Below the pieces are notes generated by a model that saw only the letters and a list, made by a program, of their open reading frames with translations, was not told where the DNA came from and did not search any database. Source: Candidatus Thorarchaeota archaeon (GTDB taxonomy: Archaea > Asgardarchaeota > Thorarchaeia > Thorarchaeales > Thorarchaeaceae). Taken from it: a stretch of DNA of 32,000 nucleotides. Of this stretch, positions 919 through 12,608 are shown piece by piece (position 1 is the first letter of the stretch; every line of letters starts with the position of its first letter). Where the stretch lies: positions 1 to 32,000 of the forward strand of contig SHMX01000007.1 in assembly GCA_008080745.1 (NCBI GenBank), given 5' to 3'. The translations under genes were made by a program, and so were the position numbers.

Positions 919-1806
919 ATGTTTGAGAATGATTCGGAATTATTTGCATTTCTGGGCATTGACCTTAATTCGGTCAGAATGGATATTCTCTCCGCCATAA
1001 TTAAGACACAAGGTATGACTGGCTCTACATTTGAGGATATCATGGAGCAACTTCTTTACGTTCGAGGAAAAAAGGCTAACGAATCTTTGGTATATCGTAG
1101 TCTAAGTGAATTGGAGGATATAGGTTTCATTTCAATTGACAAATCAGAACACATTCACATTTACAGTTCCGGATTTGATCATCTTGAGCATGTTCTGAGT
1201 CAAAGGTTACCAGCATCCATTAATGAGCTAAGATTGGAACAGGAAACCATTGAAAAGAAAATAAAAATGATTAGAAATGCTGAGGGTATCGACCTAGCGA
1301 AACATATGGTAGAAATTCTAACTGGGAAAAAAACCGAGCAGCAATCCCGCTTTGCGTTAGGATTATCCAACATTTTTCGACTACTCTCTGCCGAAATATT
1401 CGCAAATGTTGGTTATAATGATGTGATTCGAATCTCCTTGGGATGGGGCAGTCCGGAGGTGGAGGACCATCTCATAGCTGATGATAAGCTTGAAGGTCTT
1501 CTGGAATTTAACACCAATATTCGAATACTTGTTTCCATGGATTGGAAATTTCATGAACCACTTATTTCTTTGATATACCTTAAAAGATCAGAGGGCTTTA
1601 ATATTGAGATTAGAAGACGAACGCATTTTCATGGTACATACCAATTTCTAAGTCATAATGATGAAAATCTTGTTCTAATCACATCTGAAAAACCTCTGTC
1701 GGCAGCATTCATTCCGGAACATGCTAATCGGATTCTAGTTGCCGATGCAATTCGGGTTTTTGATAAAGAATTCTCAGACGCATCTATCATTTCGGAGGGT
1801 CCCTGA
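919..1806 (+). CDS. TrmB-like regulator (winged HTH, coiled coil, PLD-fold effector domain)
   Basis: N-terminal wHTH (VYRSLSELEDIGFISID), a heptad-like segment (INELRLEQETIEKKIK), and a C-terminal alpha/beta domain with no HKD motif. Confidence 0.6.
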   Translation: MFENDSELFAFLGIDLNSVRMDILSAIIKTQGMTGSTFEDIMEQLLYVRGKKANESLVYRSLSELEDIGFISIDKSEHIHIYSSGFDHLEHVLSQRLPASINELRLEQETIEKKIKMIRNAEGIDLAKHMVEILTGKKTEQQSRFALGLSNIFRLLSAEIFANVGYNDVIRISLGWGSPEVEDHLIADDKLEGLLEFNTNIRILVSMDWKFHEPLISLIYLKRSEGFNIEIRRRTHFHGTYQFLSHNDENLVLITSEKPLSAAFIPEHANRILVADAIRVFDKEFSDASIISEGP

Positions 1807-2744
1807 TGAATTTGGAAAAGGCAAAATCGATTCTTAGCACCGTAGGAGTCAAAGAAAATTCCCGTGATATACAAATTTTGAAACAGATGCTATTATTGTC
1901 TCATATACCTACCAAACCCTTGATATTCCGAGAGATTATGGATTACATAAATGAAGAACGAAAAGCTGACAATGAGAGCCCGTTCTCGCGTGGTTGGATA
2001 AGCAAATGCTTGAATAGTCTAGTGGATCGACATTTTGTTCACAAAGATAGCCTCGGAAGTCCTTACAAATATTCAGTTACTCTGGAAACTCTTAGTGATG
2101 GAATCCACCAAGCCTGTCAAGAGTATATTTCCATCTTGGAAAAACAAAATAGCGAAATAGGAAGAAAACTTGCACACCTCCGTTCGGTTGATCCTTTGTC
2201 TTTAGCAAGAGATCTCTATCGTACTCTCTCTGGGACTGAATACATTTCTCCTGGTGGAATTGATGGTGTTGTGGGAGTAAGCAATGCAATAATTTCAGGG
2301 ATTATCGAACCAGCTCAAGAATCCGATATTCTTCGCGTATTTGGGCATTATTATCTGGTTCGGTCGGGTATTGAAATCGGACCTATTCAGAAACAATTAG
2401 TTGGAGCATCTCTCCGAGGAGTTAAAACCTTAATCTTACTCTCCCCCCCAGAGTCTCAAAACAATATTGTTGAACTCATTAGGAGCTCTATTACTTCCTA
2501 TCAGAAGCCTCTGAATCTCGCTATAGAATCTGGAAATCTTCAGATTCGTCTACTTCCAGATAAAAAACGAACCTATCGTGGAATCATTCTTAACGACATT
2601 CGAATGATTTTGATTCTTAGTGATAAACAAAAACCTGATTCAGGTGTCTTTATTACTCCAGACTCAAACACTCCACTCATTCTTGCTGCCATTAAGACCT
2701 TCGATCAACTCTGGACTGAATCTCATCCACTGGATTTTTCCTAG
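1806..2744 (+). CDS. TrmB-like regulator paralogue
   Basis: wHTH (WISKCLNSLVDRHFVHK...YKYSV), coiled coil, ASLRGVKTLILL and LQIRLL...YRGIILND. The start overlaps the upstream stop (TGATG). Confidence 0.6.
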   Translation: MNLEKAKSILSTVGVKENSRDIQILKQMLLLSHIPTKPLIFREIMDYINEERKADNESPFSRGWISKCLNSLVDRHFVHKDSLGSPYKYSVTLETLSDGIHQACQEYISILEKQNSEIGRKLAHLRSVDPLSLARDLYRTLSGTEYISPGGIDGVVGVSNAIISGIIEPAQESDILRVFGHYYLVRSGIEIGPIQKQLVGASLRGVKTLILLSPPESQNNIVELIRSSITSYQKPLNLAIESGNLQIRLLPDKKRTYRGIILNDIRMILILSDKQKPDSGVFITPDSNTPLILAAIKTFDQLWTESHPLDFS

Positions 2745-3820
2745 TCCTGACTCTGTTTTTCAGCAATCCAAGATTGATCCTTACTTAGAATATTATAGAT
2801 ATCTGCACAGACTGCTTCAAAGTCGTCATATAGTCCATACTCTCCACCTGCGGCATATGGATGTCCTCCTCCTTTGAAAATTTTAGCAGCCTCGTTACAA
2901 AGTACCTTTTCACTACCTCTTCTGAATCCAAGCATTCCACCTTGGCTAAGTGTAATCAGAAGATCTGCTAGTGGGTATTTTTTCCCCTCTAATTCGAGAT
3001 TCTCAGAATCTGCCAGATATGTACCTAGGTCGGTGGTCGTTACCCCTGTTGGAATCTCAACAATTCTTACCAGTACATCATTTATTTCTTGGTCGCAATG
3101 GCCAGCAAAGGCCTTTCTCATCTTCTTTGCCTTATCCTTTCTATAATGGTGGACCTGTTTAGCGAGAAGATTATCGCGCAATTGATTACGTTTAGAATCC
3201 CAAACACCTGCAATTCCATTTTCACTAAGGGACATTAGCAGTGGTTTGAGAGCATCTGTGATGTCGTGTCTTCTATCAATTGCACCGAATCTGATCACTG
3301 ATACTGCATCTGTAAGAGCATTTGCAGCTGGTATAGCTCGTTCGTTGAAATCAGTATCATGAGCAATTGCAGCCAATTCTCCACTGATGATGTCCCGAGG
3401 CATTAAGACTTTGTAAGCGATTTCAGCCGCGCAGAAATCATGATTTATTTTTACTACCGGCTTTCTATCCAATTGAAGAATTGCCTTAATGGCTTCCTTT
3501 GACCACTGATGGTGGTCCAACCATACCACTCGACAATTCTGAGAGACGGCCTTCGATAGTGCATTTTGAACGGCCTCTAGGTAGTTTGCATCTAACCCCA
3601 AATCCGTAACAACGATGAGGGTATCGCGCAATCCCGTGACCTTTGAAAAAGCATAATCGAATGAACCGTAGTCAGTAAGAAGTACATCAAAATCCAGATT
3701 TTTTTGTTTAGCATATCTGGCTACAATTGCAGCTGCACAAAGTCCATCTACGTCTTTATCGTGGCTGATTGAGAACACGGATTGGAGTTTTTTTCCTCGT
3801 GTCTCGTCTTTTTTGCTCAT
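2741..3820 (-). CDS. DHH/DHHA1 family phosphoesterase (NrnB/oligoribonuclease-like)
   Basis: SHDKDVDG, VTDLG, WLDHH and GGGHPYAAG motifs. The likely start is ATG 3820 (MSKK); the ORF track starts at 3838. Confidence 0.9.
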   Translation of the reverse strand: MSKKDETRGKKLQSVFSISHDKDVDGLCAAAIVARYAKQKNLDFDVLLTDYGSFDYAFSKVTGLRDTLIVVTDLGLDANYLEAVQNALSKAVSQNCRVVWLDHHQWSKEAIKAILQLDRKPVVKINHDFCAAEIAYKVLMPRDIISGELAAIAHDTDFNERAIPAANALTDAVSVIRFGAIDRRHDITDALKPLLMSLSENGIAGVWDSKRNQLRDNLLAKQVHHYRKDKAKKMRKAFAGHCDQEINDVLVRIVEIPTGVTTTDLGTYLADSENLELEGKKYPLADLLITLSQGGMLGFRRGSEKVLCNEAAKIFKGGGHPYAAGGEYGLYDDFEAVCADIYNILSKDQSWIAEKQSQD

Positions 3821-3916
3821 GGTTGCTCGAATTTGCAATGTAATTACCCTTTTTCATTGTTTTCTATCAGGAATGGTCTAAAGGAAACTATTTTCTGCTG
3901 TTTTTGAGTTCATATC

Positions 3917-5785
3917 ATGAGTTCGGTTACTATGGACGAATCCCCCAATTCTGAAGAAATCATGAGTGGGAATGTGGCATTTGCAAAAGGTGCTATTCAT
4001 GCTGGCGTTGGATTTTGTACCTCTTATCCCGGCACTCCGTCAACTGAGATTACGGAAACTCTATTGCAATATCGTAATGAAACTGGGATGATTGTGGAGT
4101 GGAGTGTAAATGAGAAGGTAGCTTTGGAGTCTGCTGCCGGGGCCAGCTGGATGGGTATTCCCTCTTTGTGTGTAATGAAATCACTCGGACTCAATGTTGC
4201 AGCTGATTTTCTACTCAATTTGAATCTATCAGGAGTTGGTGAAGGAGGTCTCGTGATTATTGTTTGTGATGACCCCAAGGGGCACAGTTCAAGTAACGAA
4301 CAGGACTCAAGATTCTATGCCAAAGCCGCACAAATTCCTTTATTCGAACCCAGTACACCTCAACAGGCTAAAGATGTAGTTGCACATGCTCTTGAACTCT
4401 CTCAAATTTTTCGTGTACCTGTCTTGATACGAAGCACAACCCGTCTCTCTCATTCCGGTGCCCTTGTGTCATCAAGTCCTTTTTCTTCACACTTGTGGGT
4501 ACCATCCCAGAATCTTCCATCTGGTTTATACAACGTTCCGAATCCGGAAAAACAGCACAGAGAGCTGATGGAAAAGCTTGAGTTGATTCAGGATAAATTT
4601 GATAACCATATTATGAATTCTCCGCCAAAAGAATGGAAAGATATCTTGTTTGTAGCAACAGGTGTGTGTCAGAAATACGTGGAGGAAGCTATGAAATACA
4701 TCGAAGAGGATGTAAGTTTCTTTGGCATTGTCACCACATATCCTGTTCCACACAAACTAATCCACGAATGTCTTAAGCATTCTAAACGGATTTTCTTTTT
4801 TGAGGAAAACGATGCCTTTGTCGAAGATCAATTCCGTATCGTGGCATCACTAGAAAATTCACCCTGTATTCTTGATGGTAAGCATAGCGGCCTAGTACCT
4901 TTTTCCGGAGAGATGAATGTGGATTTGGTATTAGAAGCTCTACGGGATTTCATGACCCCTAAGAAGGAAGCAGAGTATGAAGCTGTTCCTGTACTTGATA
5001 GCCGTTCACTCCTAATTCCACGTCCACTGACTTTCTGTGCAGGTTGTACTCATCGCAATGTCTACTATGCTCTTCAACGAGTACGAAAGAGATTGAAAGG
5101 CAAATTGGTAGTAACTGGTGATATTGGCTGTTATTCGTTGGGTGTATTTTATCATAATTCTATGGAAACCATGCAATCTATGGGCTCTGGTATTGGGACT
5201 GCTAATGGGATAGCACGCTTGGCTGATTTTGCACTTGACTCCAAGGTTGTTTCTCTTGCTGGCGATTCTACGTTCTTTCATGCATGCATACCTGCGCTGA
5301 TCAATGCACGTCATAAGAATGTAGATTTGACATTTCTCATCTTGGACAATTCCACTACTGCAATGACCGGATTTCAATCCCATCCTGGAGCAGCTGAACA
5401 AGACGAATCCGATAGGATTGTGGAAATCGAAGATATTGTTCGTTCTATCGGTCCGGATTCATTCATTCGAATAGGAGCGACAGATGTGGTTGATTTGACT
5501 GATGTAATGCATGCAACAATAAAACAACCCGGGCTCAAAGTCATGCTCATCGATAGCATCTGCCGACTTGAACGAAAAAGAAAGCAGCAACCACAAGAGG
5601 GGAGCATTCGTATAGAAACTTCTCTCTGTCAAGGCGAATCATGCAGACTCTGTGTGAGTGAATATGGATGTCCAGCTATCACTTGGTCCTCAGATAGTGA
5701 GACTGCGGAGATTCTGGATCATCTTTGTGTACAATGTGGTTCCTGCATTGCCATATGTCCTCAACGTGCTATTCAGGAGGAATAG
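3917..5785 (+). CDS. iorA: Indolepyruvate:ferredoxin oxidoreductase subunit alpha
   Basis: YPGTPSTEI, WSVNEKVALE, FCAGCTHR, GDIGCYSLG, GDSTFFH TPP-binding motif, and a C-terminal 2x[4Fe-4S] ferredoxin domain. Confidence 0.93.
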   Translation: MSSVTMDESPNSEEIMSGNVAFAKGAIHAGVGFCTSYPGTPSTEITETLLQYRNETGMIVEWSVNEKVALESAAGASWMGIPSLCVMKSLGLNVAADFLLNLNLSGVGEGGLVIIVCDDPKGHSSSNEQDSRFYAKAAQIPLFEPSTPQQAKDVVAHALELSQIFRVPVLIRSTTRLSHSGALVSSSPFSSHLWVPSQNLPSGLYNVPNPEKQHRELMEKLELIQDKFDNHIMNSPPKEWKDILFVATGVCQKYVEEAMKYIEEDVSFFGIVTTYPVPHKLIHECLKHSKRIFFFEENDAFVEDQFRIVASLENSPCILDGKHSGLVPFSGEMNVDLVLEALRDFMTPKKEAEYEAVPVLDSRSLLIPRPLTFCAGCTHRNVYYALQRVRKRLKGKLVVTGDIGCYSLGVFYHNSMETMQSMGSGIGTANGIARLADFALDSKVVSLAGDSTFFHACIPALINARHKNVDLTFLILDNSTTAMTGFQSHPGAAEQDESDRIVEIEDIVRSIGPDSFIRIGATDVVDLTDVMHATIKQPGLKVMLIDSICRLERKRKQQPQEGSIRIETSLCQGESCRLCVSEYGCPAITWSSDSETAEILDHLCVQCGSCIAICPQRAIQEE

Positions 5786-5787
5786 AT

Positions 5788-6381
5788 GTGCAGAATCCAT
5801 TCAATATTCTGATAGCTGGAGTTGGTGGACAAGGTAATGTAACAAGTGGGAAGATTCTTGCAACTGCAGCTCAGCGTGAAGGATTGCGTCCAGTTATTGG
5901 GGAGACCTTCGGGGCATCAAGAAGAGGTGGTACTGTCTATACACATGTCCGCATTGGAGATACCGATTTAGGACCTTTGATTCCCGTTGGTAGACTTCAT
6001 GTTCTACTTGGTCTGGAGCCGATGGAAACCCTTCGCGCATCTCTTGAGTTTGCAGGAAGAAATACAATTGTCATTATGAGTTCTGTTTCTATTCCGCCAA
6101 TAGGTGTTCATGCCAGGACAGACGAGTATCCACCCGTAGAATCTATTATATCAAGTCTGGAAAAAATGTGTGCTAGGGTGCATACTGTTGACTCTGATAG
6201 CATACTCCGACCTATCAACGCAATCCGCTCGCTAAATATACTGCTTATTGGTATTATGGCTGGTCTTGGAATTTCACCACTAGGAATAGAATCACTAAGG
6301 TTGGCAATGCTTGATATACTCGGTCCGAGTGACAAGAATTTACAGGCTTTTGAATTGGGGCTATCGGATAATACCGGTTAG
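5788..6381 (+). CDS. iorB: Indolepyruvate:ferredoxin oxidoreductase subunit beta
   Basis: ILIAGVGGQG, ETFGASRRGG, LLGLEPMET. The GTG start at 5788 follows AGGAGG (5775-5780), directly after iorA. Confidence 0.9.
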   Translation: MQNPFNILIAGVGGQGNVTSGKILATAAQREGLRPVIGETFGASRRGGTVYTHVRIGDTDLGPLIPVGRLHVLLGLEPMETLRASLEFAGRNTIVIMSSVSIPPIGVHARTDEYPPVESIISSLEKMCARVHTVDSDSILRPINAIRSLNILLIGIMAGLGISPLGIESLRLAMLDILGPSDKNLQAFELGLSDNTG

Positions 6382-8687
6382 TCCTTTACACCTTTCTTCT
6401 TGGCTTCAGCATTCTTCTTTGCCTCTCGCCACATTAATTCTGCTAGAACTGTGAACATGTCTGCTACACCCTCACCTGTCTTTGCAGAACTCTCCATATA
6501 CAGAAAACCTTGGTCCTCTGCCCATTTCTTCGCTTCTTCGGGACTAACAGCTCTATCTGGCAAGTCAATCTTGTTCCCAACACATATCATGGGTACTCGT
6601 GTACCAATGGATGCATCTGCTTCCTCCACCCATTTGTGTAATTCAGCAAAAGATCTACGTCGGGTCACGTCAAATACAAGAATGACACCTGCAGCTCCAG
6701 AATAATACATCTTTCGTACTGCTTTGAATCTCGCCTGTCCTGCTACGTCCCATGCTTGTATCTTGATACCGACTGCGTACTCTGTAGATGGCGGAGATAT
6801 ATGAGCCAATTTTACTGCAAATTGTGAACCTATGGTAGTTTTGTAGTCACGTTCAAACACACCAGTCACATAACGATTTACAAGCGTGGTTTTACCAACT
6901 GCACCCTCTCCTATTACCATGGTCTTAAAGAGGTAAGAATATGCATCAGGAGAGGCATTGGGTCGTACTGGTTTAGGCTCACGTTTTCTGATTTCCACGA
7001 CAAGTTCTGACTCAACTTGTTCCTCCTCAACCTCAGGGGTGACAGTGGTCTCAGGTTCTGTGGTGGTCTCTGCACCCATCATTGATTTAACATCATCCAG
7101 AGCAGCTTTGGCATCGGATTCGCCACCAAAAAGCTGATCTAAGAGGTCTTCTGCTGCTTTCAACGAGTCCTGTGGATTGGTCTTTTGTGCAGTGACCTGT
7201 TCAATCTCTGATTCTGGTATGGATGAGAAACCTGTTCCTTCTGCTGGAGTAAATCTACTTGGGGTTTCAGTCATAGTTGGAGTAAAAACTTCGGGCTCCG
7301 CAGATTCCTCTTCAAGTGAGGTCATCACAGCCTCTCCGTCTCCCTTTTCAATAAGTAGGACGGTTTCCGGTGTAGTAACTTGACTTACCTGCTCATTTTC
7401 TCCTTTCCACATGAGCACAATGGGACGCAGAATTACACTACCTTCTTTCTTTGGAAGTAACTTAATTTCAACAGTCTTTTTCTCTCTAGGGTCAAGGTCA
7501 AATCGCAGTTGCTGATCTGAGACCTCAAGGTGGTCCTTGGGGAACCAATAGATTTTCCCCGAGATTCCAGTCATGGGTGTATCAGTGACGTTCTCTAGGG
7601 TGACTTTTCCAACTAATGGTTTACCTACTGTAGAAGTATGAGGAACATCGAAACTTGGAATCACTTTGTACAGTCCCTCTATGACTTTTAGGGGACCATT
7701 GGAAACACCAACAAGGATTTCCTTTCGTTCGTCACCTTTAGCGTCACCCACACTTAGTGCGAGAATTTTAGAATCAATATCGACAGTGGCTACCAGATTA
7801 AGGTCAGCCATGTATAAGTTATAGAAGTTTATCTTCATATCAGAGGTTGCTATAATAACCTCATCCATATGATCAGCATTGATTTCTTCCATTCTGATAG
7901 ATAGTGCCTTTACATCCTCAAGAGTTGAGAATAGGTCTAATTTGCTCTCCTCGTTTCTATAAATCCGAATTGAACCGTCGTGTGTCACCACACCTAGTTC
8001 CATCTTTCTATCTCCCAGAATGTCTCCCGATGTCACCGATATAACCGGACTAGGAAGTTCAAGAACTGTAATCTGCTCAATCTCACCATCTCTAAGCTTG
8101 AATACCCGTAGTGTCTTATCTCGGTTTCCTGTCACCATCTCATCAATTTCATCGCCTATCACATCACAGGTTCCGATTGCTATGGGCATGTCATCCAATT
8201 GATATTTTGCATATTCGGTGAGTTGATTTTCAGGGGTCAACTTGAGAACTCTTAGTGTGGAGTCGCTACCACCTGCCACAATCTCATTATAATCATCTCC
8301 AGTAACATCTGTGACTACCACCGTTGTTACAAATTTATCTATTGCATGTTCTGCTAAGAGTTCGAATTGTCCATTGACTGCATATCGATATATCTGCACA
8401 GTACCTGTGATACCTGGTGATTCTCCAATGCCTACGCTTCGTCCTATGACTATCTCATTCTGGCCGTCATTATTCGCATCAGCAATTTTTATTGACAGGA
8501 TACTTCCAGAGAGATCCAATTGTGCCAAGAATTTGTATTCAGTATGGTTAATGCTATAGAGACGTAGAACTCCATCACGACCACCAGTACAGAGTTCAGG
8601 CTCTCCGGAACCAGTAATATCACCTACTGCAATTGCGCTAGTGCTCAAGTCATCAGAAATCTCGGATAGTATTTTGGGCGATGTCAA
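6378..8687 (-). CDS. FG-GAP beta-propeller + Ig-like domain + acidic linker + Rab-like small GTPase fusion protein
   Basis: Seven repeats of about 45 aa with a [GT]D-x-x-[GN]D-x3-E core. G1 GEGAVGKT, G2 TIG, G3 WDVAGQ, G4 NKID, G5 ESSAK. No signal peptide or TM segment is visible. Confidence 0.9.
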   Translation of the reverse strand: MTSPKILSEISDDLSTSAIAVGDITGSGEPELCTGGRDGVLRLYSINHTEYKFLAQLDLSGSILSIKIADANNDGQNEIVIGRSVGIGESPGITGTVQIYRYAVNGQFELLAEHAIDKFVTTVVVTDVTGDDYNEIVAGGSDSTLRVLKLTPENQLTEYAKYQLDDMPIAIGTCDVIGDEIDEMVTGNRDKTLRVFKLRDGEIEQITVLELPSPVISVTSGDILGDRKMELGVVTHDGSIRIYRNEESKLDLFSTLEDVKALSIRMEEINADHMDEVIIATSDMKINFYNLYMADLNLVATVDIDSKILALSVGDAKGDERKEILVGVSNGPLKVIEGLYKVIPSFDVPHTSTVGKPLVGKVTLENVTDTPMTGISGKIYWFPKDHLEVSDQQLRFDLDPREKKTVEIKLLPKKEGSVILRPIVLMWKGENEQVSQVTTPETVLLIEKGDGEAVMTSLEEESAEPEVFTPTMTETPSRFTPAEGTGFSSIPESEIEQVTAQKTNPQDSLKAAEDLLDQLFGGESDAKAALDDVKSMMGAETTTEPETTVTPEVEEEQVESELVVEIRKREPKPVRPNASPDAYSYLFKTMVIGEGAVGKTTLVNRYVTGVFERDYKTTIGSQFAVKLAHISPPSTEYAVGIKIQAWDVAGQARFKAVRKMYYSGAAGVILVFDVTRRRSFAELHKWVEEADASIGTRVPMICVGNKIDLPDRAVSPEEAKKWAEDQGFLYMESSAKTGEGVADMFTVLAELMWREAKKNAEAKKKGVKD

Positions 8688-8762
8688 ATGGATAACCTCA
8701 ATTATATGCTCAATCTGCTCTAAATTGGACCTGATATTCTCACCAATATGCAGTTTTAATCA

Positions 8763-8779
8763 TCCCTTCTTTGAAGGGA
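8763..8779. promoter_or_regulatory. Palindrome TCCCTTC-TTT-GAAGGGA in a divergent intergenic region
   Basis: Perfect 7-bp inverted repeat between the GTPase fusion gene and the ABC ATPase gene. Function is inferred only. Confidence 0.35.
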
Positions 8780-8863
8780 GTCCTTTTCTACTTTGTTCTG
8801 AGGCACACTCAAAATTGTTATGACAGGACAGTATTTAACCTAGCTCAGTTGAACATATCGTAG

Positions 8864-9673
8864 GTGAGAAACCTGTCCAAACTTGCTGTTCGCAACCTTT
8901 CAAAGACATTCCTTACAGATGAAGACGAATCCGTCAAAGTACTTGATTCGATTGATTTTGAAGTCAAAGAAGGCGAATTTGTAAGCATACTTGGACCGAG
9001 TGGATGCGGCAAGACCACTCTACTACGTATAATTGCTGGATTACTTCGCTTTTCAGAAGGTGAGATTCTGATTGACGGGGTGAGGGTTGGTTTGGGTCAT
9101 AACAGAATTGGTTTTATTTTTCAACAAGAATCACTCTTCCCCTGGAGAACCGTTCGAGGTAATATCGAGTTCGGTCTAGAATTAAAGGGCATGTCCGAGG
9201 GTATGAAACAGGATCTCTTAGAGAAGATGTTAGATCTTATTGGTATGACGGAATATCAAGATAATCTTCCTCATGAAATATCTGGAGGACAGGCAAGAAA
9301 GACCGAGATGGCTCGCAGTCTCATAACCACGCCCGATATCTTGGTTGCCGATGAGCCCCTCTCAAATTTAGATGCACAGACAAGAAACTTTCTACAAGAG
9401 GAGCTATTACGAATTAGGGAAAGAACTGGTTCCACAGTACTTTTCGTATCTCATAATGTTGACGAAACTGTGTTTCTGTCCGATCGAATATTGGTTCTTA
9501 GTAATATTCCTGCAAGAATCATTGCAGAGTACACTATTGATATTCCCAAACCAAGAGACCGTACTTCTCCTGAATGTCTATCATATAGATCTCAAATCTT
9601 GGAAGTTCTCAGAGCAGAGCGTGAGAAAATTCTCAACGATAGAGCTACACAGAGACCCCAGGTCTCCATCTGA
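8864..9673 (+). CDS. ABC transporter ATP-binding protein (SsuB/TauB/NrtD-like)
   Basis: Walker A GPSGCGKT, Q-loop FQQ, signature ISGGQ, Walker B LVADEP, H-loop SHN. GTG start. Confidence 0.93.
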   Translation: MRNLSKLAVRNLSKTFLTDEDESVKVLDSIDFEVKEGEFVSILGPSGCGKTTLLRIIAGLLRFSEGEILIDGVRVGLGHNRIGFIFQQESLFPWRTVRGNIEFGLELKGMSEGMKQDLLEKMLDLIGMTEYQDNLPHEISGGQARKTEMARSLITTPDILVADEPLSNLDAQTRNFLQEELLRIRERTGSTVLFVSHNVDETVFLSDRILVLSNIPARIIAEYTIDIPKPRDRTSPECLSYRSQILEVLRAEREKILNDRATQRPQVSI

Positions 9674-10487
9674 GTATATTTCTCTCCATTATCAGGAATA
9701 CATAACTGATCAGAAAGCCAATGAGCCCTATGAGAAGCATAGCTGAGATAACCTCACCAGTTCTTCCTACTTGCTGCATAATCAACACAAGGTAACCTAA
9801 TCCCAGACCTCCCCCAATCATCTCTGCAGCAACTAGACACATCCAACCAATTCCAAACCCTATCCGTAATCCTGCAAATATCTCTGGTGCAGCGGAAGGT
9901 ATTACAATCTTGGAAAGAATCTGCGATTCTGTTGCACCAAATGTCTTTGCCACATCAACATGTACCGGTTCGGTTCGTTGTACCCCTGTGGTGGTGTTGA
10001 TTAGAATTGGGAAAAAAGCACCAATCCAGATTATGAATACCTGTGCACCAATCAGATTGGCCCGAAACATAAGAATGGATAGGGGTATCCATGCAATTGG
10101 TGGAATTGGTCTGATTGCATCTACAACAGGGCCGAATACATCATTCATAATCTTGTATCTACCGATGGTAATTCCAAACGGTATTGCTGTAAGAATTGCA
10201 ACTAAGAATCCCAACACTACTCGAAAAAGACTCATTCTAACATGGTCAATGAGCAAGTGTCCTTCGCTATCTCCCTCGATAGATAGTCTGATGAATGCAT
10301 TAACTACATCTATTATTGAAGTTCCAGAGAGAAAGGCAACAACTTCCCAGAGAATGATTAGAATGATTGCTGGAAGTATAATTTTTATCGCGATATTTTT
10401 TATATCAAACCTTCCAGAATCTTTTCTCCCTTGAGGGACTGACTGCCTGACTCTTGCAGCTTCCTGTTGAGATTCCATTTTTCTCAA
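9645..10487 (-). CDS. ABC transporter permease (SsuC/TauC-like)
   Basis: About six TM segments, RPIPPIAWIPL, and an EAA-like loop (VAKTFGATESQILSKIVIPSAAP). Confidence 0.92.
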   Translation of the reverse strand: MRKMESQQEAARVRQSVPQGRKDSGRFDIKNIAIKIILPAIILIILWEVVAFLSGTSIIDVVNAFIRLSIEGDSEGHLLIDHVRMSLFRVVLGFLVAILTAIPFGITIGRYKIMNDVFGPVVDAIRPIPPIAWIPLSILMFRANLIGAQVFIIWIGAFFPILINTTTGVQRTEPVHVDVAKTFGATESQILSKIVIPSAAPEIFAGLRIGFGIGWMCLVAAEMIGGGLGLGYLVLIMQQVGRTGEVISAMLLIGLIGFLISYVFLIMERNILRWRPGVSV

Positions 10488-10525
10488 GGAGTCAGCACAG
10501 TCTTATTCCTTTGAATCTACCGTTT

Positions 10526-11509
10526 TTACTCAGCATTTTCAATGAAGGTTGTATTTACAAATGAATCAAAGAATGAATCAATCTCTGTAGGATCCATAGT
10601 AACCTGTCCTTCATCAATTAGAAAGCTGAGATATCTCTCAAGGCCAGTCATGTTTAGATTATAATCAAAGATGATATTATTGAAGGCCGTTGTCACGGGA
10701 GTTTCATCCATCATGAGCCAGTCCATTGCTATTTGAATTGCATCAGCTGGATTTGCAACAATCCACTCCTCTGCTCTCTTATGGACATCAATAACTTTCT
10801 GAACAATATCTGGGTGTTCTGCGAGAAAAGTATTCGTTGACGCAACTACACAACAGGGATGATTTGGCCAGATATCACCAGATTGAACTAGAGGCACTGC
10901 CTTCTCCTCATACTCTGCTCGTGCGTTGAATGGCTCCCAGGCAACAAACGCAGGAGCATCTTCGGTCAGAGAATCTGCCATATAGGAGGGCGATGTGGTT
11001 TCAGGTGTTATATCTTCATAAGTTAGACCTGATTGGTTCAAGGCCAATCGAAGAAGGAAATTTTGTACCGTAGAGGGGCCTGGTTGATATACAGTCTTTC
11101 CTGCAAGATCTGCAATCGTAGTCACTCGACCAGCATCATATTCTGATTTGAGACCCATTATAGCTGAGCCTTCTAAATTCACTGCAGCAAGAATAGTTAT
11201 CATAATATCTTGATTGAGTCGTTTGGTAATTGCAGGTGCAGCACCTAGATACCCCAGGTCTATCTGTCCACCGTTGAACCCATCCATCTCAAGTGCGCCG
11301 TTACCATATTGTACGAGCTCGACGTTAATTCCCTCCTCAACAAACCATCCCTTTTCGACGGCTACTCTGAGGGCCAATTGATGTAAATCTTGAGAAAGGT
11401 AGCCAATTCTGGCATCGGGAACTGTGGAGGGATACCATACGGCGACCAGTACAAGTGATGAAATTACAATAACAGTAATTGCTATTGCGACACTCTTATT
11501 CTTCTCCAT
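10526..11509 (-). CDS. ABC transporter substrate-binding protein (SsuA/NrtA/NMT1-like, N-terminal membrane anchor)
   Basis: RIGYL, G-x-IDLGYLGAAP, AFVAWEPF, WPNHPCC. The likely start is ATG 11509 (MEKNK), followed by a hydrophobic anchor. Confidence 0.88.
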   Translation of the reverse strand: MEKNKSVAIAITVIVISSLVLVAVWYPSTVPDARIGYLSQDLHQLALRVAVEKGWFVEEGINVELVQYGNGALEMDGFNGGQIDLGYLGAAPAITKRLNQDIMITILAAVNLEGSAIMGLKSEYDAGRVTTIADLAGKTVYQPGPSTVQNFLLRLALNQSGLTYEDITPETTSPSYMADSLTEDAPAFVAWEPFNARAEYEEKAVPLVQSGDIWPNHPCCVVASTNTFLAEHPDIVQKVIDVHKRAEEWIVANPADAIQIAMDWLMMDETPVTTAFNNIIFDYNLNMTGLERYLSFLIDEGQVTMDPTEIDSFFDSFVNTTFIENAE

Positions 11510-11621
11510 GAATCTCTGCTCCTTAGCACAAATGATTTGTATCTGAACCATATAGAATTTGACCTGTGTACCTAATACTTAGTACAACACATTGATTAGC
11601 CCAGTAGAACAGGTGTAATAT

Positions 11622-12014
11622 ATGACCCTCCGAGATCGAATTCCCGAACAACTAACGATAACCGATGACTCTCTGATTGCTGCCACCATGGAAACGGATG
11701 TTGGTGTCTTTCCGACAAGCGATTATATTCTCTTAGAGATATCTCATAAGGCTGGTCGAATTGATGTCTATAAGGTGGCTAATACTGCATATGACTTGGT
11801 AAAGAACGGAAATCGTATGGTTGCAATCCGTGGATATGGTTTCAAGGGTATAGGGCTTTCTGTTCGGATAGCACATGAGATTCGTAAGATGGAAAAACGC
11901 TTCCAATACCAGATGACATTTGATACGTTTGATGCTTACGAACCAGATACTGAACGACCGCAGACCAGTGTTCAGATTGTTGTCATGCCACCTGAGGATG
12001 AGTCCGAGGAATAA
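11622..12014 (+). CDS. Divergent Alba-family nucleic-acid-binding protein
   Basis: NGNRMVAIRGYGFKGIGLSVRIAHEIR resembles the Alba segment VIIKARGRAISRAVDVAEIVR, and TSVQIVV resembles STIEIVL. It has an N-terminal extension and an acidic tail. Confidence 0.6.
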   Translation: MTLRDRIPEQLTITDDSLIAATMETDVGVFPTSDYILLEISHKAGRIDVYKVANTAYDLVKNGNRMVAIRGYGFKGIGLSVRIAHEIRKMEKRFQYQMTFDTFDAYEPDTERPQTSVQIVVMPPEDESEE

Positions 12015-12038
12015 TTTCTTGGATCGTGAGATTGTATT

Positions 12039-12608
12039 GTGAACGCAAAGAAAGGGATTGGAGTACTGAAAGTTAAGCTATCAAAGGTGACTTTTCCCGA
12101 GGTGTGTCCTGCCTGTCTAGAAGATGCAGAGGATCTGATCTCCATGGAAGTATGGAGTGATGAGGACAAGGCATCCACAACTTTCAGCCGTGCCGATCAA
12201 GCAGAATCTGCGCTCTCCGTGAAGAAAGGAGCGACGGTAATCTGGGTTCCTACTTGTATGAGTCATGGTAGTAAAAACGTTAGAACAACTAGAAAGGTTG
12301 TCTTGGCATGGATTGGTTTTCTTATCCTATGGTATCCTGGCATCTATTTCCTATTAGGATTGATACGTGCATTCTATTACAGTAATTCTATCCTCCTTCC
12401 TCTTCTACAGTTCTTAGTCATGTTGGGGATAATGGGGCTTGTGCTCCTGTACGGATATTTTCCTCGTGCGGTTGAGCGAAACCTGCATTTTCTAGATGTG
12501 GATATCCAGAAAGACACACTCTATGTATTGATTGGTAAACAAGAATATTATGACCTCTTTCTTGAACTAAATGAAATGCATGCAGAAGAAATAGATGTGA
12601 TTGAGTAG
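12039..12608 (+). CDS. Hypothetical two-TM membrane protein with a putative Zn site (CPAC...CMSH)
   Basis: CxxC and CxxH pairs precede two hydrophobic helices. GTG start. Confidence 0.65.
   Translation: MNAKKGIGVLKVKLSKVTFPEVCPACLEDAEDLISMEVWSDEDKASTTFSRADQAESALSVKKGATVIWVPTCMSHGSKNVRTTRKVVLAWIGFLILWYPGIYFLLGLIRAFYYSNSILLPLLQFLVMLGIMGLVLLYGYFPRAVERNLHFLDVDIQKDTLYVLIGKQEYYDLFLELNEMHAEEIDVIE

Follow-up and report, generated by a model that had tools for sequence, protein, structure and literature searches.

The structure of a stand-alone Rab-like GTPase from Thorarchaeota, Thor-Rab, has been solved (7EZB, 7EZD and 7EZE), and the GTPase fusions described in the same study comprise only those with longin and roadblock domains (Tran et al., 2024; PMC10933270). 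In eukaryotic signature proteins (ESPs), the majority of multi-domain architectures have been found to be restricted to narrow subsets of Asgard archaea, for which domain shuffling has been suggested (Liu et al., preprint). Here, we analysed a 32,000-nucleotide stretch of a Candidatus Thorarchaeota genome (GenBank assembly GCA_008080745.1, contig SHMX01000007.1, positions 1 to 32,000; referred to as the window), which contains a gene fusing an FG-GAP-type beta-propeller, an immunoglobulin (Ig)-like domain, an acidic linker and a Rab-like small GTPase in a single chain of 769 amino acids (aa). The domain-shuffling picture fits this Thorarchaeal fusion. Its GTPase shares with Thor-Rab the lineage, a complete set of G-motifs and the lack of C-terminal prenylation cysteines, whereas Thor-Rab is a stand-alone protein of ~180 aa and the GTPase of the fusion ends a long chain behind propeller, Ig domain and acidic tether.

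Several other known systems resemble parts of this protein. Eukaryotic large Rabs (Rab44, Rab45/RASEF and CRACR2A) combine N-terminal interaction domains, a long linker or coiled coil and a C-terminal, prenylated Rab domain. The fusion follows the same overall logic, but the large Rabs use EF-hands and a coiled coil and are prenylated, and homology is implied for the Rab domain alone. The BBSome subunits BBS1, BBS2, BBS7 and BBS9, which work with the small GTPase ARL6 (6VBU, 6VOA and 4V0M), and ITFG2 of KICSTOR (9V6E and 9O5A) contain, like the fusion, seven-bladed FG-GAP-class propellers that reside in the cytoplasm. The propeller of the BBS proteins precedes an Ig-like (GAE) domain, just as an Ig-like domain comes next in the fusion, and BBS1 binds a small GTPase via its propeller (title of PDB entry 4V0M). 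However, the fusion shares just 12-16% identity with BBS proteins and ITFG2, with small margins over unrelated propellers, and differs from the BBSome and ARL6 in that its GTPase is Rab-like instead of Arf-like and covalently attached, and in that a coiled coil, a platform and a helical C-terminus are absent. The best overall two-domain match, including the placement of the domains, is provided by prokaryotic surface proteins combining FG-GAP/VCBS propellers with Ig domains (DUF11, CARDB, ASH/DUF1573, FlgD-Ig and TIG), which also have the blade motif in common with the fusion.

The combination of propeller, Ig domain, linker and Rab-like GTPase seems to be undescribed, as no publication on a propeller-GTPase fusion was found in the literature on Asgard archaea with FG-GAP proteins or the BBSome, and such a fusion is not mentioned in the Thor-Rab paper, a preprint on Arf or the preprint of Liu et al. 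We regard it as probably a lineage-specific, soluble multi-domain ("large") Rab-like GTPase, i.e., a self-tethered switch with its own scaffold or effector, that was built from local paralogues in the Thorarchaeal lineage.

Architecture and conservation of the propeller-GTPase fusion

The fusion gene (6378..8687, minus strand; stop codon at 6378-6380) was delineated from the open reading frame list and its translation and comprises 769 uninterrupted codons, beginning with a TTG start codon that lies 7 nt downstream of a GAGGT element read in the sequence. Homologues in a 21-sequence alignment share their first residue with this start, and the protein collection searched contains a 100% match. 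The gene is present as a single copy in its own genome, where no internal stop codons were found. Four parts follow one another in the chain, the scores that identify the folded domains being far beyond chance; the GTPase motifs are intact, and export and lipidation signals are absent. No secretion or membrane signal was identified in the 769-aa protein, the highest 19-residue hydropathy being 1.23 and the N-terminus polar. Because the chain carries a GTPase and no leader, the protein is predicted to be soluble and cytoplasmic. A search with the PADLOC defence models gave no match.

The propeller (aa 1-342; 7662..8687, minus strand) was recognized by Pfam, by its blade motifs and in an AlphaFold2 model. 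A D-x-x-G-D-x-x-x-E-hhh-G motif is present in all seven blades, and the Pfam models FG-GAP_3 (64 bits over three stretches, cut-off 26.9) and FG-GAP (23.8 bits, cut-off 22.1) both match. Modelling of the N-terminal 447 residues gave a mean predicted local distance difference test (pLDDT) score of 90.6 and a predicted template modelling (pTM) score of 0.86, with a propeller of 28 strands packed on a beta-sandwich. Within aa 1-447, DSSP assigned not a single helix of four or more residues, and propeller and Ig domain are immediately adjacent. With seven repeats, a single propeller and a confident model, this part of the protein belongs to the FG-GAP/VCBS class.

The Ig-like beta-sandwich (aa 343-447; 7347..7661, minus strand) was also modelled alone, yielding an all-beta sandwich with a pLDDT of 94.5. 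Its nearest structural neighbours in Foldseek are TRAP-beta and Pyrococcus CARDB (E 3.6e-5 for the CARDB domain of PF1109), and in the ESM Atlas it matches DUF11/CARDB/TRAP_beta clusters with template modelling (TM) scores of 0.80-0.85 and a root-mean-square deviation (rmsd) of 1.5-2.2 A. Pfam yielded no DUF11 or CARDB match at E values up to 1, and the matches obtained were just Transglut_C (0.009) and ASH (0.02). By the fold of its model, the domain is a common prokaryotic sandwich of the DUF11/CARDB/TRAP-beta/macroglobulin-domain type, and a gamma-adaptin-ear type as in BBS1 is neither indicated nor contradicted by these matches.

The C-terminal part (aa 579-769; 6381..6953, minus strand) is a Rab-like small GTPase ending in a Lys-rich, Cys-free tail, as identified by Pfam Ras and by profile matches to PDB structures. 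Pfam Ras scores 156 bits over aa 588-751 (cut-off 21.6), compared with 48 bits for Arf. The motifs G1 to G5 are complete, including the catalytic Gln: the P-loop GEGAVGKT (G1; aa 593-600; 6888..6911, minus strand), YKTTIG in switch I, DVAGQ (G3), NKID (G4) and SAK (G5). G1, G3, G4 and G5, which were searched for across the family, are retained in 120/120 homologue clusters, the set to which all per-motif counts given here refer. Among the top 60 PDB profile matches, the best solved relative is the Thorarchaeota Rab 7EZB (E 1e-50), followed by Rab14, Rab1, Rab30, Sec4, Rab35, Rab11, Rab8 and Ypt1, which by sequence assigns the domain to the Rab-like branch and not to Ras, Rho, Ran or Arf. No prenylation Cys is present in the last 30 residues, and only 1/120 clusters has a Cys in its last 12 residues; the protein thus lacks the C-terminal geranylgeranylation cysteines of a eukaryotic Rab proper. 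An assignment as a ROCO protein was rejected, as the Roc model match (105 bits) overlaps the stronger Ras match, COR is lacking and the chain ends 18 residues past the GTPase.

Between the sandwich and the GTPase lies an acidic, S/T/P-rich linker of 131 aa (aa 448-578; 6954..7346, minus strand) with 31 D+E versus 11 K+R and a net charge of -20. It contains an island, SLKAAEDLLDQLFG (aa 508-521; 7125..7166, minus strand), that is predicted to form an acidic amphipathic helix (hydrophobic moment 0.55). The local conservation of this island is 0.85-0.88, compared with 0.3-0.5 in its flanks, and its motif AE.LLD.LFG is kept in 111/120 clusters. Across the protein, conservation is highest in the GTPase (0.90), followed by the propeller (0.81) and the Ig domain (0.74), and lowest in the linker (0.57). 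A preliminary description of the locus had proposed this four-part order from the sequence, and each of its elements was recovered where it had been placed: seven FG-GAP blades (seven motifs, with the blade quoted there, VVVTDVTGDDYNEIVAGG, located at aa 123-149), an Ig-like beta-sandwich for which a confident model was obtained, an acidic linker estimated at ~135 aa, and a small GTPase that had been called complete, in agreement with Pfam Ras and the full set of G motifs. The absence of a signal peptide also holds and extends to transmembrane segments and prenylation cysteines.

The fusion is widespread among close relatives. Homologues in the protein collection form more than 120 clusters (751-826 aa, 63-88% identity), which are collinear with the fusion, share its mix of Pfam domains and are mostly labelled Thorarchaeota "GTP-binding protein". 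When the N-terminal profile was searched against 301 genomes of the phylum, the full-length fusion was found in 73/76 genomes of its own family, spanning 16 genera (frames of ~770-800 aa, E 1e-229 to 1e-267), and in the sole genome of the sister family searched. The other genomes among the 301 gave weak matches alone (E 1e-11 to 1e-18), which correspond to different propeller proteins. A 781-aa orthologue with 43% identity from a sister lineage contains all four parts collinearly and in the same Pfam layout. Shorter forms in the protein collection are just fragments at contig ends, a split form was not found there, and longer proteins yielded no fused forms, just two unrelated weak matches. 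The other Asgard propeller proteins checked (383-846 aa) carry no GTPase. Within the phylum sample, the fusion is thus confined to one Asgard order, and in its own family it is a near-universal single-copy gene under strong purifying selection.

Relationship of the platform to BBSome, KICSTOR and prokaryotic FG-GAP proteins

Foldseek comparison against the PDB placed BBS2, BBS9, BBS1 and BBS7 on top (E 1e-17 to 1e-14), followed by ITFG2 (1e-13) and integrin alpha (1e-12), and the ranking among Swiss-Prot models was the same. In profile hidden Markov model (HMM) searches of the PDB, ITFG2 was the top solved protein (E 7e-6 over ~150 residues) and BBS7 ranked fourth. The Pfam models Beta-prop_BBS7 (54 bits), BBS2_Mid (51 bits) and Itfg2 (32.9 bits, cut-off 27) also score above their cut-offs, the last covering just profile positions 10-114 of 330. 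Furthermore, the fusion protein is leaderless, as are the BBS proteins and ITFG2, and an October 2026 preprint names, in a single line, a structural cluster "BBS7/ITFG2" exclusive to Asgard archaea and eukaryotes, which may correspond to the fusion family. Apart from the Pfam matches, these observations speak for a reading in which the N-terminal module is a specific homologue, and possibly a forerunner, of BBS1/2/7/9 or ITFG2, with the fused GTPase in the part of ARL6 or Rab8 and the whole protein a primordial coat or adaptor subunit.

We consider such a specific relationship unlikely, as several lines of evidence argue against it. Generic FG-GAP proteins, among them P0128 and P0129 with their signal anchors and many repeats, score 38-67 bits on BBS2_Mid, Itfg2, Beta-prop_BBS7 and BBS1, and a 2246-aa frame located on the contig of the fusion gene but beyond the window (G000:C7:59880-60365) reaches 32.7 bits on Beta-prop_BBS7 compared with 32.3 for the fusion gene in the same search. 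A match to a BBS propeller model that is specific to the family was therefore not obtained. Prokaryotic models in AlphaFold DB and the ESM Atlas match as well or better: the top AlphaFold DB clusters are prokaryotic VCBS, FG-GAP and Calx-beta proteins (E 3e-20 to 1e-16), with PTHB1 at rank 26, and bacterial FG-GAP+Ig proteins superpose over both domains (TM 0.69-0.74, rmsd 3-4 A), whereas the BBS proteins do so with an rmsd of more than 20 A. By its fold, the Ig domain belongs with the DUF11/CARDB/TRAP-beta sandwiches, and the chain lacks the coiled coil, platform and helical C-terminus of BBS2/7/9, continuing instead with linker and GTPase. Because generic FG-GAP proteins match the same Pfam models and prokaryotic structural models match as well or better, the likeness to BBSome and KICSTOR propellers is that of the FG-GAP class as a whole and is not evidence of ancestry. 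Of the BBSome resemblance claimed in the preliminary description, the rank of BBS2, BBS9, BBS7, BBS1 and ITFG2 as top solved structures stands, albeit by small margins, while the specific relationship is not supported. Against its proposal of an archaeal coat or adaptor forerunner speak the class-wide matches, the lack of a coiled coil, platform and alpha-solenoid, and the restriction to one order. By these matches, the protein largely groups with generic FG-GAP/VCBS proteins and has an Ig domain of CARDB-type fold, the outcome that the description itself had named as incompatible with a BBSome reading. A protocoatomer was also rejected, as neither the model nor the Pfam scan contains a helical domain and hence there is no alpha-solenoid after the propeller.

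A broader version of this idea treats the fusion as a Rosetta stone: a partnership of a small GTPase with a cytoplasmic FG-GAP propeller and ear-like Ig domain, as in ARL6-BBS1, would already have been in place in Asgard archaea, docking of the GTP-bound Rab-like domain onto its own propeller would open a platform for cargo or membrane, and BBS1/2/7/9 and ITFG2 would descend from leaderless Asgard FG-GAP propellers. We think this improbable. As a separate observation on leaderless Asgard propellers, two other Asgard genomes (L034:17-3860, G083:C19; L036:1685-5666, G192:C35) encode a 680-720-aa protein that is immediately followed, in the same orientation, by a leaderless propeller protein of ~555 aa. 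With Beta-prop_BBS7, the propeller of the latter reaches 66-90 bits, exceeding its FG-GAP_3 score of 42-55 bits, and the protein encoded upstream shows weak matches to the adaptor medium-subunit (mu-homology) family (26-34 bits, cut-off 31.6) and DUF11. In the Atlas, the 559-aa propeller family forms a cluster of 81 members, mainly from Promethearchaeota.

In contrast to P0128 and P0129, the fusion protein has no leader, a single propeller and a C-terminal GTPase, and must therefore work in the cytoplasm; an exported surface protein was rejected for lack of a leader and because of the attached GTPase. The platform is best explained as a prokaryotic-type module that lost its leader peptide. Beyond the fusion family, an exhaustive profile search recovered, besides large FG-GAP proteins with many repeats, small proteins with a single propeller, two of which bear Asgard source names (Promethearchaeota and Helarchaeales); all small single-propeller relatives checked are without leaders. 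In a tree of propeller domains, which was built without eukaryotic BBS or ITFG2 sequences and resolves just this one relation, the fusion propeller is sister to a stand-alone 340-aa Thorarchaeal paralogue (support 91/88). Most likely, the fusion propeller arose by duplication of a leaderless stand-alone propeller present in the lineage. The genome of the fusion gene itself encodes such a stand-alone, leaderless FG-GAP propeller of 348 aa (G000:C10:63717-64763; L033:5717-6763, minus strand), which forms the sister group in this tree and lies amid housekeeping genes (Sua5, THUMP, CDP-alcohol transferase, HD and RNase III). A second propeller match in frames of ~340-370 aa is present in many genomes of the family, but not in all. 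With regard to the GTPase, the genome encodes ~25 further small GTPase paralogues, the closest with 52% identity, and the fusion GTPase was most likely derived from this local expansion of Rab-like paralogues.

Gene neighbourhood

The fusion gene is convergent with genes for an indolepyruvate-type oxidoreductase and divergent from those of an ABC transporter with an NMT1-type (NitT-TauT) binding protein, and by its sequence context appears to form its own transcription unit. The intergenic region that it shares with the divergent ABC-ATPase gene (8688..8863; no strand assigned), as read from the sequence and the open reading frame map, spans 176 bp and contains the GAGGT element 5' of the TTG start. 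Synteny was compared in 12 genomes from 11 genera of the family. A block consisting of a DHH protein, the oxidoreductase alpha and beta subunits, the fusion gene, and the ABC ATPase, permease and binding protein is conserved in 11/12 genomes, the twelfth retaining the transporter side only. The surroundings of the 43%-identical orthologue also include a DHH protein and an oxoacid oxidoreductase, in a rearranged order. As nothing nearby suggests trafficking, the neighbourhood looks like plain synteny.

The wider region (919-12608 of the window) contains two unknown paralogues, the core block and two small unknown proteins of 130 and 189 aa. Gene order is largely kept, with the flanking unknown genes present in 9 or 10 of the 12 genomes. 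The adjacent paralogous genes (919-2744) encode proteins of 295 and 312 aa without a Pfam match at E 1e-5 or better; with 23-35% identity, they precede the DHH gene in most related genomes. The 130-aa protein (11622-12014), which has no Pfam match, shows 57-68% identity across related genomes. Beside the 43%-identical orthologue (L043:10794-14144), a 319-aa Arf-family protein and a 772-aa protein without a recorded Pfam match are encoded, which may represent another pair of a GTPase and a large partner.

Proposed working of the fusion protein and its significance

As a self-tethered large Rab-like GTPase, the protein would combine a switch that is catalytically complete, as judged by its motifs, with a rigid binding platform formed by the seven-bladed propeller packed on the DUF11/CARDB-type sandwich, the two being permanently joined by the flexible acidic linker of ~130 aa. 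The nucleotide state of the GTPase may gate binding by the platform or the placement of the protein. Such gating could operate through docking of the GTPase, in one state, onto the platform, onto the predicted amphipathic helix of the linker or onto an outside partner. A role at membranes and the partners involved can likewise only be suggested; any membrane contact would be peripheral, e.g., via the Lys-rich tail, because the protein has no lipid anchor. Two observations weigh against this reading, namely that the neighbouring genes carry no functional hint, none of them being sensor-type or trafficking-related, and that the sister grouping of the fusion propeller with the stand-alone paralogue is only moderately supported and the deep branches of the propeller tree lack resolution.

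Alternatively, the propeller could regulate its own GTPase as a built-in guanine nucleotide exchange factor (GEF) or as a regulator akin to a GTPase-activating protein (GAP), making the protein a self-regulating timer instead of a scaffold. Propellers are known to act as GEFs, namely RCC1 for Ran and Sec12 for Sar1, and GTPase and propeller of the fusion are both strongly constrained and never found apart. However, the sequence and fold show no match to RCC1 or Sec12 past the general propeller fold, and a flexible 131-aa tether would be unnecessary for an intramolecular regulator, so that we give this possibility little weight.

We are similarly doubtful of a sensor role, in which the platform would detect a small ligand, a metal, a glycan or a peptide and report to the GTPase as signalling output. 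FG-GAP and DUF11/CARDB modules usually function as ligand binders in surface proteins, and a loop in blade 2, DANNDGQNE (aa 70-78; 8454..8480, minus strand), fits the FG-GAP Ca2+-site consensus D-x-N-x-D-G-x-x-E and thus constitutes a putative metal site as judged from its residues. This loop is invariant in the 21-sequence alignment and kept as DANNDGxxE in 115/120 clusters. On the other hand, the full consensus is matched in just one of the seven blades, and neither sensor-type neighbours nor output domains are present.

That the gene is an artefact, i.e., an assembly chimera (as the preliminary description had allowed for), a gene in decay or two genes joined by read-through, has a negligible probability despite its probable source in a marine-sediment metagenome assembly, as no support for it was found and the frame is uninterrupted in the 73 related genomes, in the sister family and in over 120 clusters of proteins from NCBI, JGI, ENA and Logan, with the flanking genes on both sides retained in 11 of the 12 genomes sampled and no internal stops. 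Among sequencing runs, a search returned just two DNA runs from a single marine-sediment study, from which the window may derive, and no RNA run.

In the debate over the origin of eukaryotic membrane traffic, the small GTPases of Asgard archaea and the proteins they work with hold a central place, and the literature consulted discusses fusions of these GTPases with longin and roadblock domains only. The automatic labels "BBS7", "BBS2_Mid" and "Itfg2" that proteins of this kind receive call for caution: they belong to the whole FG-GAP class, and therefore no cilium- or coat-related ancestry should be deduced from them. The fusion, near-universal in its family and under strong purifying selection, joins a Rab-like switch to a large interaction platform and thereby offers a ready system in which to study what is under the control of an archaeal Rab-like GTPase.

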